The notes: generated by a model not told the origin, from the letters alone. A DNA stretch of 64,000 nucleotides from a virus (IMGVR_UViG_3300042350_003801); one strand, 5' to 3'; positions 49,689 to 50,608 are shown, counted from the first letter of the stretch. Translations and numbers: made by a program.

Positions 49689-50498
49689 TTATTCTGGCAC
49701 AGAAAGACGTTCTACTCCACCCATATACGGAATCAATGCGGCAGGCAAGGCAACACTACCATCACTTTGTTGACCATATTCTAATAATGCTGCCATTGTG
49801 CGGCCAACCGCTAGACCGCTACCATTAAGAGTGTGTAACAATTGAACATTCTTATTATCCCTAAAGCGAATAGATGAGCGGTTAGCCTGAAAATCAGTAC
49901 AAGTGCTACAACTAGAAATCTCGCGGTAAGTACCAGCGCCAGCCATCCAGACCTCTAAATCATAAGTGCGAGCAGCAGAAAATCCTAAATCTCCGCCACA
50001 TAGTTCCATACGGCGATAAGGTAATTCTAGAGCCTCTAGTATGCCTTCAGCATCGCAGGTAAGTTGTTCGTGAGCTTCCAACGATTTTTCGGGATGACAG
50101 AACCAATACAGCTCAACTTTATTAAACTGATGTAAACGAATTAACCCTCTTGTATCTCTTCCATAAGAACCAGCCTCGCGGCGGAAGCAGGGTGTATGCG
50201 CCACATATTTTAAGGGTAGGCGATCTATATTAATGATCTCGTCACGATGTAGGGCAGTGATAGGAACCTCGGCCGTGGGAGTAAGCCATAGATCATCATT
50301 AGCACACTTAAAACTTTCATCCGCAAATTTGGGAAGTTGCCCCGAACCAGTCAGACTTGTGCTATTTACTAAAATTGGGGGCATAACCTCTTTATATCCA
50401 TTGCCAGTATGACGATCGAGCATAAAAGAAATCAAAGCCCTTTCTAATTTAGCCCCCTGTCCCAATAAAGTCACAAAACGACTTTGTGCAATACGCAC
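49689..50498 (-). CDS. serS: seryl-tRNA synthetase, catalytic C-terminal portion only
   Basis: [57 protein letters not shown]; lacks the N-terminal coiled-coil arm. Confidence 0.9.
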
Positions 50499-50608
50499 GG
50501 AACGTTCACGGTTGCATAGTTTGGTCCTAAAAAGTCTTGTGGATTGGTAAGTGCTTCTGGTTTTTGTAGGAGGTCAGAAAATTTTTGATGGACATTTGAG
50601 TGATTCAT
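50471..50608 (-). pseudogene. N-terminal GPNY-family fragment interrupted by serS
   Basis: [34 protein letters not shown] then out-of-frame serS DNA. Confidence 0.8.

Follow-up and report, generated by a model that had tools for sequence, protein, structure and literature searches.

The window analysed here is a 64-kb (64,000 nt) stretch of DNA from a virus (IMGVR_UViG_3300042350_003801), in which the minus strand is the coding strand of every gene around a remnant of serS. The start of a gene of the GPNY family (MNHSNVHQKF...LGPNYATV), which opens with the ATG at 50608, runs straight into the 3' part of serS in a different reading frame (Table 1). A preliminary description of this DNA had already noted the out-of-frame join, and both direct reading of the sequence and the limits of homology on either side confirm it. 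The serS part remains uninterrupted from position 50507 to its TAA stop codon; residues of the gene are numbered throughout according to the 430-aa full-length form. On its 5' side the GPNY start is preceded by a 122-aa phage ORF, which is syntenic with 126-aa ORFs of the two IMG/VR relatives L081 and L082 (about 74–76% amino-acid identity) and for which Pfam and PHROG searches gave no match. The next gene on the 3' side has a 68% identical homologue in G001/L083, and GPNY paralogues follow next both in the window and in L083.

Table 1. Features of the serS remnant and its surroundings. Positions refer to the window unless a relative is named.
Feature	Position	Strand	Remarks
Phage ORF, 122 aa, function unknown	50605..50973	-	ATGA: its own stop overlaps the GPNY start
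GPNY-family remnant, first 34 codons	50508..50608	-	Aligns with full-length orthologues and about 20 paralogues in the window
45-aa ORF from the out-of-frame join	50471..50608	-	34 family codons and 11 junk codons, then TGA (50473-50471)
Putative deletion junction	50507..50508	-	GPNY codon 34 (base 2 or 3) joined to serS codon E159
serS 3' remainder	49689..50507	-	272 codons and stop (TAA 49691-49689); codons 1-158 absent
269-codon serS ORF	49689..50498	-	Counted from the first start codon, GTG 50498
GTGA overlap	50471..50474	-	In-frame GTG (codon 9 of the 269-codon ORF) shares bases with the TGA that ends the 45-aa ORF
gtgccag at the 3' end of serS, codons L S V P E	49694..49700	-	Only the 7-mer core of the repeated motif
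serS-derived 3' flank, about 22 nt	49667..49688	-	Between the serS stop and resumed backbone homology (L082 alignment)
Backbone promoter-like element GACA-N-AAACTGGCACACC	49640..49666	-	Kept in L082; upstream of the next gene; one of the 29 coding-strand motif copies; not serS
Conserved phage gene 3' of serS	49111..49587	-	158 aa from ATG 49587; 165 aa from TTG 49608
GACAC motif, examples	49647-49653, 51757-51763, 52136-52142, 1451-1472		
Variable slot in relatives	L082:7710-12435; L081:8129-10746		Between the GPNY gene and the 165-aa gene

The join itself is sharply delimited. Homology to the GPNY family, judged from the L081 and L082 orthologues and from the paralogues in the window, ends at ...AACTATGCAACCGT, and homology to serS begins at GAACGTTCC. 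Up to ...ACCGT the remnant can be aligned with the complete genes at L081:7315-7701 and L082:7315-7713 as well as with the roughly 20 paralogues of the 64-kb window. At the join the reading frame shifts by -1 on passing from GPNY to serS, the two sides share a microhomology of 2 nt at most, and the break point falls inside the conserved GPNYxxV|xNFWW block and not at the end of the family's reading frame. An out-of-frame break with little or no microhomology is what would be expected of a random deletion. In a comparison of the 45-aa ORF with longer proteins, five candidates were scored, which were generic family members only (identity of 79% or less) and included no GPNY gene of the contig that carries the full-length sister serS discussed below, a set too small to say much either way. 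Exchange among family members may also have left its mark here, as an exact 32-nt repeat links the GPNY stub (50517-50548) to a distant paralogue (7716-7747) amid otherwise diverged N-terminal DNA, which suggests gene conversion.

Other members of the family are damaged as well. Directly after the 165-aa homologue, L083 encodes a shortened GPNY-like ORF of 76 aa (L083:1986-2216; GSNY in place of GPNY), another decayed family copy. In the window, a perfect 67-nt tandem duplication (45233-45366) repeats the coding stretch GPNYKTVFDFWYFVDRLDREFIRS inside a GPNY paralogue downstream of lysS; as the duplication shifts the frame, this is a second broken member of the family.

Comparison with the relatives places the remnant in a region of variable gene content. 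Proteins encoded next to the corresponding position in L081 and L082 are about 75–80% identical to those of the window, and both relatives carry a 239-aa and a 126-aa gene followed by a complete GPNY gene at the matching position. Synteny with these genomes in tblastx ends at 50507-50518, and homology to L082 resumes at about 49666, no more than 22 nt past the serS stop, within the promoter-like element. In the relatives, about 4.7 kb of other small genes, one of which encodes a 386-aa protein, occupy the slot bounded by the GPNY gene and the 165-aa gene. None of the genes of the 4.7-kb region of L082 occurs elsewhere in the window, and the slot can thus be regarded as a variable accessory region.

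The wider setting is that of a T4-like cyanophage: a tail-fibre protein longer than 1,100 aa is encoded in the window, whose helicase DNA resembles the helicases of T4-like Synechococcus phages. A full-length lysS (45523-47016) lies 2.7 kb downstream of the serS remnant, and the same accessory region contains a gene for a 495-aa RNA ligase (37917-39404; phrog_968, 1.5e-52). RNA ligase, lysS and serS remnant together make up a tRNA-related gene set. Among the other genes close by, the five unannotated flanking ORFs that were scanned gave no match to a Pfam family, neither to a PP-binding domain nor to MazG; the other two neighbours are the helicase and LysRS.

Repeated sequence elements punctuate the window. 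GTGCCAG and its complement occur in 41 copies where 4.45 are expected. On the coding strand the element takes the form GACAC-N(about 8)-AACTGGCAC (n=29), mostly between genes, with a -10-like box about 30 nt downstream; it is also present in reverse, as GTGCCAGTT, and the copy at 1451-1472 is a perfect palindrome, GTGCCAG-N8-CTGGCAC. The GACAC-N(about 8)-AACTGGCAC motif looks like a candidate phage promoter or operator element. The last codons of serS also contain gtgccag, which had been taken for a palindrome arm. The 7-mer is indeed present, but the TT that flanks the genuine motif and its N8 spacing are missing; the backbone CTGGCAC (49653) is 40 nt away instead of 8, and folding of 49590-49720, with gtgccag (49700) and ctggcac (49653) as the arms of a hairpin, was no better than that of shuffled sequences (z -0.11). 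Moreover, the 7-mer needs a V codon at a position where the sister protein has G. Its occurrence at the end of serS is therefore treated as coincidental. Scans of 49000-52300 for sigma-70-type promoters and terminators stayed at the level of shuffled sequence.

The protein encoded by the serS remainder retains the hallmarks of a class II synthetase core. Pfam family PF00587 (tRNA-synt_2b) matches residues 67-240 of the product (E 3.3e-39), and no match was obtained in it for the seryl N-terminal domain PF02403, which holds the tRNA-binding coiled coil. The remainder aligns from residue 159 onward with P0122, the full-length form from a related phage. In an alignment of 29 cyanobacterial SerRS sequences, all of the 97 invariant and 37 near-invariant columns that fall within the remainder are unchanged. 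Motifs 2 (FRREAGS...GLIRLHQF) and 3 (GSGLAVGRT) had been described as intact in an uninterrupted frame of 269 codons, and this holds; motif 1 is kept as well.

The loss at the N-terminus is nonetheless larger than that of the coiled coil, which the preliminary description had named as the missing part. In an AlphaFold (AF2) model of the full-length sister protein (mean pLDDT 79.9), the coiled-coil arm spans residues 28-105, followed by a strand at 126-131 and helices at 146-153 and 158-165. Truncation at residue 159 (162 if counted from the GTG) removes the arm, as proposed, but also strand 126-131 and helix 146-153. With residues 1-158, 11 invariant and 13 near-invariant SerRS positions have disappeared. 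The invariant ones include P109, N110, G119, N125, W131, G132 and H146 of the PN...G...N...WG...HW block, and hence a complete catalytic domain, with its PNLP...NVxVxxWG...HWE segment before motif 1, is absent. Short SerRS chains in the PDB keep more of the N-terminus: 9qof matches from residue 99, and 7ydf and 7ydg, both annotated as mitochondrial SerRS, do so from about residue 131. A search of the rest of the 64-kb window for serS codons 1-158 recovered no piece of them. The serS frame contains no start codon before GTG 50498, and no ATG start is left. Judged from the arrangement of codons, the GTGA overlap would be the only plausible site for translational coupling; its GTGACT encodes the VT of SRFVTL, residues which are common to the sister protein and to host SerRS.

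The history of the gene can be read from its relatives. Full-length sister proteins, P0002 (425 aa) and the longer call P0122 (430 aa, MLNYRMLRENP...), are encoded on one contig of 243,166 bp, and the window remainder is 97.8% identical to them. Its identity to the 431-aa SerRS of freshwater Cyanobium MAGs is 86–87.5% over 272 residues. Fifteen residues that the window and sister sequences have in common are absent from all 17 host-type sequences in the comparison. Maximum-likelihood analysis groups window and sister as a clade (100/100) on a long stem, which adjoins the freshwater Cyanobium group (98/96) within the picocyanobacteria. The high identity to a complete phage gene, together with the 15 shared residues, indicates that the fragment is a cut-down descendant of a complete, long-resident phage copy.

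Codon usage points to a long residence in phage genomes. The GC3 of the remainder is 0.32, as against 0.82–0.86 in Cyanobium serS and 0.21–0.36 in the neighbouring phage genes. Between the remainder and Cyanobium serS, pS is about 0.98 and pN 0.09; dS is thus saturated, so that dN/dS against Cyanobium serS is not computable, and such a ratio would in any case reflect the period before truncation. That synonymous sites are saturated while the core is still 87% identical to the host enzyme speaks for very long purifying selection within phages. Taken together, the full-length sister, the shared clade, the phage-like codons and the saturated synonymous sites argue that a complete host serS was captured long ago and then kept under purifying selection in the phage lineage. 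In the coiled-coil part (residues 1-158), P0122 is 55–58% identical to Cyanobium SerRS, compared with 87% for the core; pairs of host sequences with equal core identity show an arm identity of 57–75%. The arm of P0122 thus lies at the low end but within the range of host pairs and gives no clear sign of an earlier relaxation.

Close relatives of the phage gene are scarce in reference collections. A search of IMG/VR with P0002 and the SerRS alignment returned no close phage serS (best about 59% for a partial and about 50% for a full-length match), and serS-bearing relatives in INPHARED reach 61% identity at most. All serS genes retrieved by the metagenome and genome scans were of host type, with full-length identities of at most 77%; neither the sister nor the window contigs were among the results. 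Conversely, an identical 269-aa product is called on six contig records from public collections (two and four, respectively), on contigs of up to 250 kb. L210 and L230 were considered as N-terminally short SerRS and rejected, as they are full-length genes with diverged arms. A further, independent short SerRS, P0117 (273 aa), comes from a 10,634-bp Logan contig and shares 81% identity with the remainder. Its start, MDTERSV, lies two codons upstream of the window breakpoint; P0117 may be either a second short form or the product of a host gene with a frameshift, called from an internal TTG.

The remainder of serS and the GPNY stub together are most probably a young pseudogene derived by deletion, and not a new enzyme. 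The proposed course of events would begin with a T4-like lake cyanophage ancestor that took up an entire serS gene from a Cyanobium-like freshwater host. The gene would have been kept as a working gene until all of its synonymous sites had reached phage composition, and in its full-length form it would have sat just upstream of the 165-aa gene. A single illegitimate deletion would then have joined GPNY codon 34 to serS codon 159 in the wrong frame, thereby destroying both genes, with the GPNY start now yielding at most a junk peptide of 45 residues. That this deletion happened in situ is the parsimonious assumption, and the serS remainder is presumably not translated. The full-length gene in the sister phage is what makes a young deletion product the most likely origin of the remnant, and the persistence of an open frame with its conserved residues would be due to there having been too little time for decay. 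Of the two ways in which the preliminary description had read the locus, that of a relic thus finds support in the full-length sister, the common origin and the out-of-frame join. Its view that a catalytic domain was inserted, or captured, right after the GPNY motif finds no support, as the sister copy points to a later cutting-down of a complete gene.

The substitution pattern is compatible with this history, but it is not specific to it. Of the six replacements between window and sister, outgroups assign two to the window lineage and two to the sister lineage, and the other two could not be polarised. Those on the window branch change D to N in KCADDD and R to C in LTRDAEG, and none of the six is located at an invariant column. 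Among the single substitutions possible across the 816 bases, 4.5% create a stop codon. At this rate a neutral copy with three to five hits would stay open with a probability of 0.79–0.87, so that an open frame is to be expected of a young neutral copy and is no argument for selection. A recent pseudogene therefore fits the data, and continued constraint would also fit. Two observations run counter to the pseudogene: the window copy has accumulated no more replacements than the intact sister (2 vs 2) and its conserved columns are unchanged, as expected under selection too, and the shortened allele is widespread, with six contig records and several lake runs. Genes in this genome often overlap stop to start or lie close together, so that a 261-aa product might conceivably be translated to some extent from the GTGA overlap.

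Two alternatives concern how the join arose. One is an assembly chimera, made from reads joined across repeated GPNY sequence. In its favour, Logan contigs break at 50519-50546 because of the 32-nt repeat; the k-mer graph hence confirms the passage from GPNY to serS but not which GPNY start lies upstream. However, the stretch is present in many lake-water metagenome runs, five of which contain 100% of the sampled words, and among the four runs aligned to it, single Logan contigs span the join without differences in X2 (rec7, 49080-50546) and in X7 (rec22, 49460-50546). These two runs belong to different studies, and each spanning contig includes 39 nt on the family side. The join, bridged at 50507/50508 in two lake runs, is consequently taken to be genuine. 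A repeat of 32 nt is presumably far shorter than typical short reads, and with ordinary reads much longer than that, and the identical 269-aa product on all six contig records, a chimera is extremely unlikely. In run X9 both flanks are covered and the serS remainder is not, at a depth of 3–4 that is too thin for calling another allele. Direct capture of a partial serS, of host or other phage origin, by the GPNY gene would instead make the family ends capture sites, as had been put forward before. The family is prone to recombination, and the join does fall within its conserved N-terminal block, which contains the 32-nt identity to the paralogue at 7716-7747. Yet the remainder shares 97.8% identity with a complete phage copy and has fully phage-like codons, which precludes a recent host origin. 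Furthermore, the break is non-homologous, out of frame and situated inside GPNYxxV|xNFWW, only one such junction has been seen, and on the right the serS segment closes with a normal gene end, after which comes the backbone promoter-like element. A break within a conserved block, with 2 nt of microhomology or less, gives no support to the family ends as capture sites, and direct partial capture appears highly improbable.

The remaining alternatives take the remainder for a gene in use. Its expression as an arm-less SerRS core, whether from GTG 50498, by reinitiation at the GTGA (50474) or by -1 frameshifting, is considered improbable. The open frame and the 134 intact conserved columns would suit such an enzyme, as would the stop-start overlap, a serS frame that is open for 26 codons upstream of the join, the wide distribution of the allele and the precedent of SerRS2alpha/SLIMP (PMC10570016). 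Conversely, the join is out of frame and no ATG is available, while 25 of the 32 gene starts listed for the window are ATG, many of them overlapping the previous stop or sitting a few bases past it. Neither a Shine-Dalgarno-like motif nor a uniform start context is evident upstream of these 32 starts, and the absence of such a motif at serS accordingly says little. No canonical -1 slippery heptamer (X XXY YYZ) was found by eye in the GPNY frame, the nearest candidate being C TTT TTA, so that frameshifting lacks a canonical site, and there is no evidence that the GTGA site is used for reinitiation. The catalytic domain has lost about 50 conserved residues, together with a conserved strand and helix that are retained in PDB 7ydf, 7ydg and 9qof. 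An open frame is expected under neutrality, and the intact sister shows that the selected state was the full-length enzyme. The product of an expressed arm-less core would activate serine (giving Ser-AMP or Ap4A) or pair with the 87% identical SerRS of the host. Such pairing is conceivable in view of the retained motif 1 and the identity of 87%, and its specific form, in which a core of 261–269 residues made at a low level would dimerise with the host Cyanobium SerRS via the motif 1 interface and alter serine charging, seems quite unlikely. If it did occur during infection, the mixed dimer would either be a one-armed hybrid whose active site comes from the phage, or leave the host enzyme poisoned.

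With a young deletion pseudogene as the preferred reading, the case is, from the viewpoint of the single gene, one of ordinary decay of an accessory gene. Its wider value lies in the pair of sister phages of about 245–250 kb, which differ by an intact versus a broken host-derived serS and thus offer a natural test pair. The pair suggests that phages can retain an aaRS gene over very long periods and nevertheless do without it in some settings. It also calls for caution, as an open frame and intact motifs are a weak sign of function where an intact copy with 98% identity exists.

Several known systems invite comparison with the remnant. Bacterial-type SerRS, as found in freshwater picocyanobacteria and with solved relatives from Aquifex (2dq3) and T. 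thermophilus (1ser/1ses), shares with it the class II core, motifs 1–3 and the conserved columns. The remnant differs in its missing residues 1-158, the lack of a proper start, the out-of-frame fusion and its phage codon usage. The amino acid:carrier-protein ligases, to which it had been likened, are SerRS homologues without a tRNA-binding domain that derive from the zinc-dependent methanogen-type SerRS, according to Mocibob et al. (2010) as summarised in PMC9437257. The window remnant, in contrast, nests within the bacterial-type SerRS of picocyanobacteria. A PDB search (E<=1e-5) returned no chain named as an amino acid:carrier-protein ligase and the type-2 SerRS 3w3s only marginally (3e-6). 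The five unannotated flanking ORFs include no carrier-protein gene recognisable by Pfam. A further parallel is SerRS2alpha of invertebrate mitochondria (insects), an arm-less protein that shows no aminoacylation alone and charges tRNA only as a heterodimer with SLIMP (PMC10570016). Like SerRS2alpha, the remnant is a catalytic part without the coiled coil and could in principle work only with the arm of a partner; SerRS2alpha, however, is a conserved and properly expressed gene, whereas the window remnant starts at residue 159–162 without a proper start codon. Finally, host-derived aaRS genes are known from large phages (Al-Shayeb et al., 2020; PMC7162821), and serS is annotated in Brevundimonas jumbo phages. 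The full-length sister serS and the lysS, in a phage of about 250 kb, resemble the host-derived aaRS genes of large phages, unlike which the serS of the window is broken.
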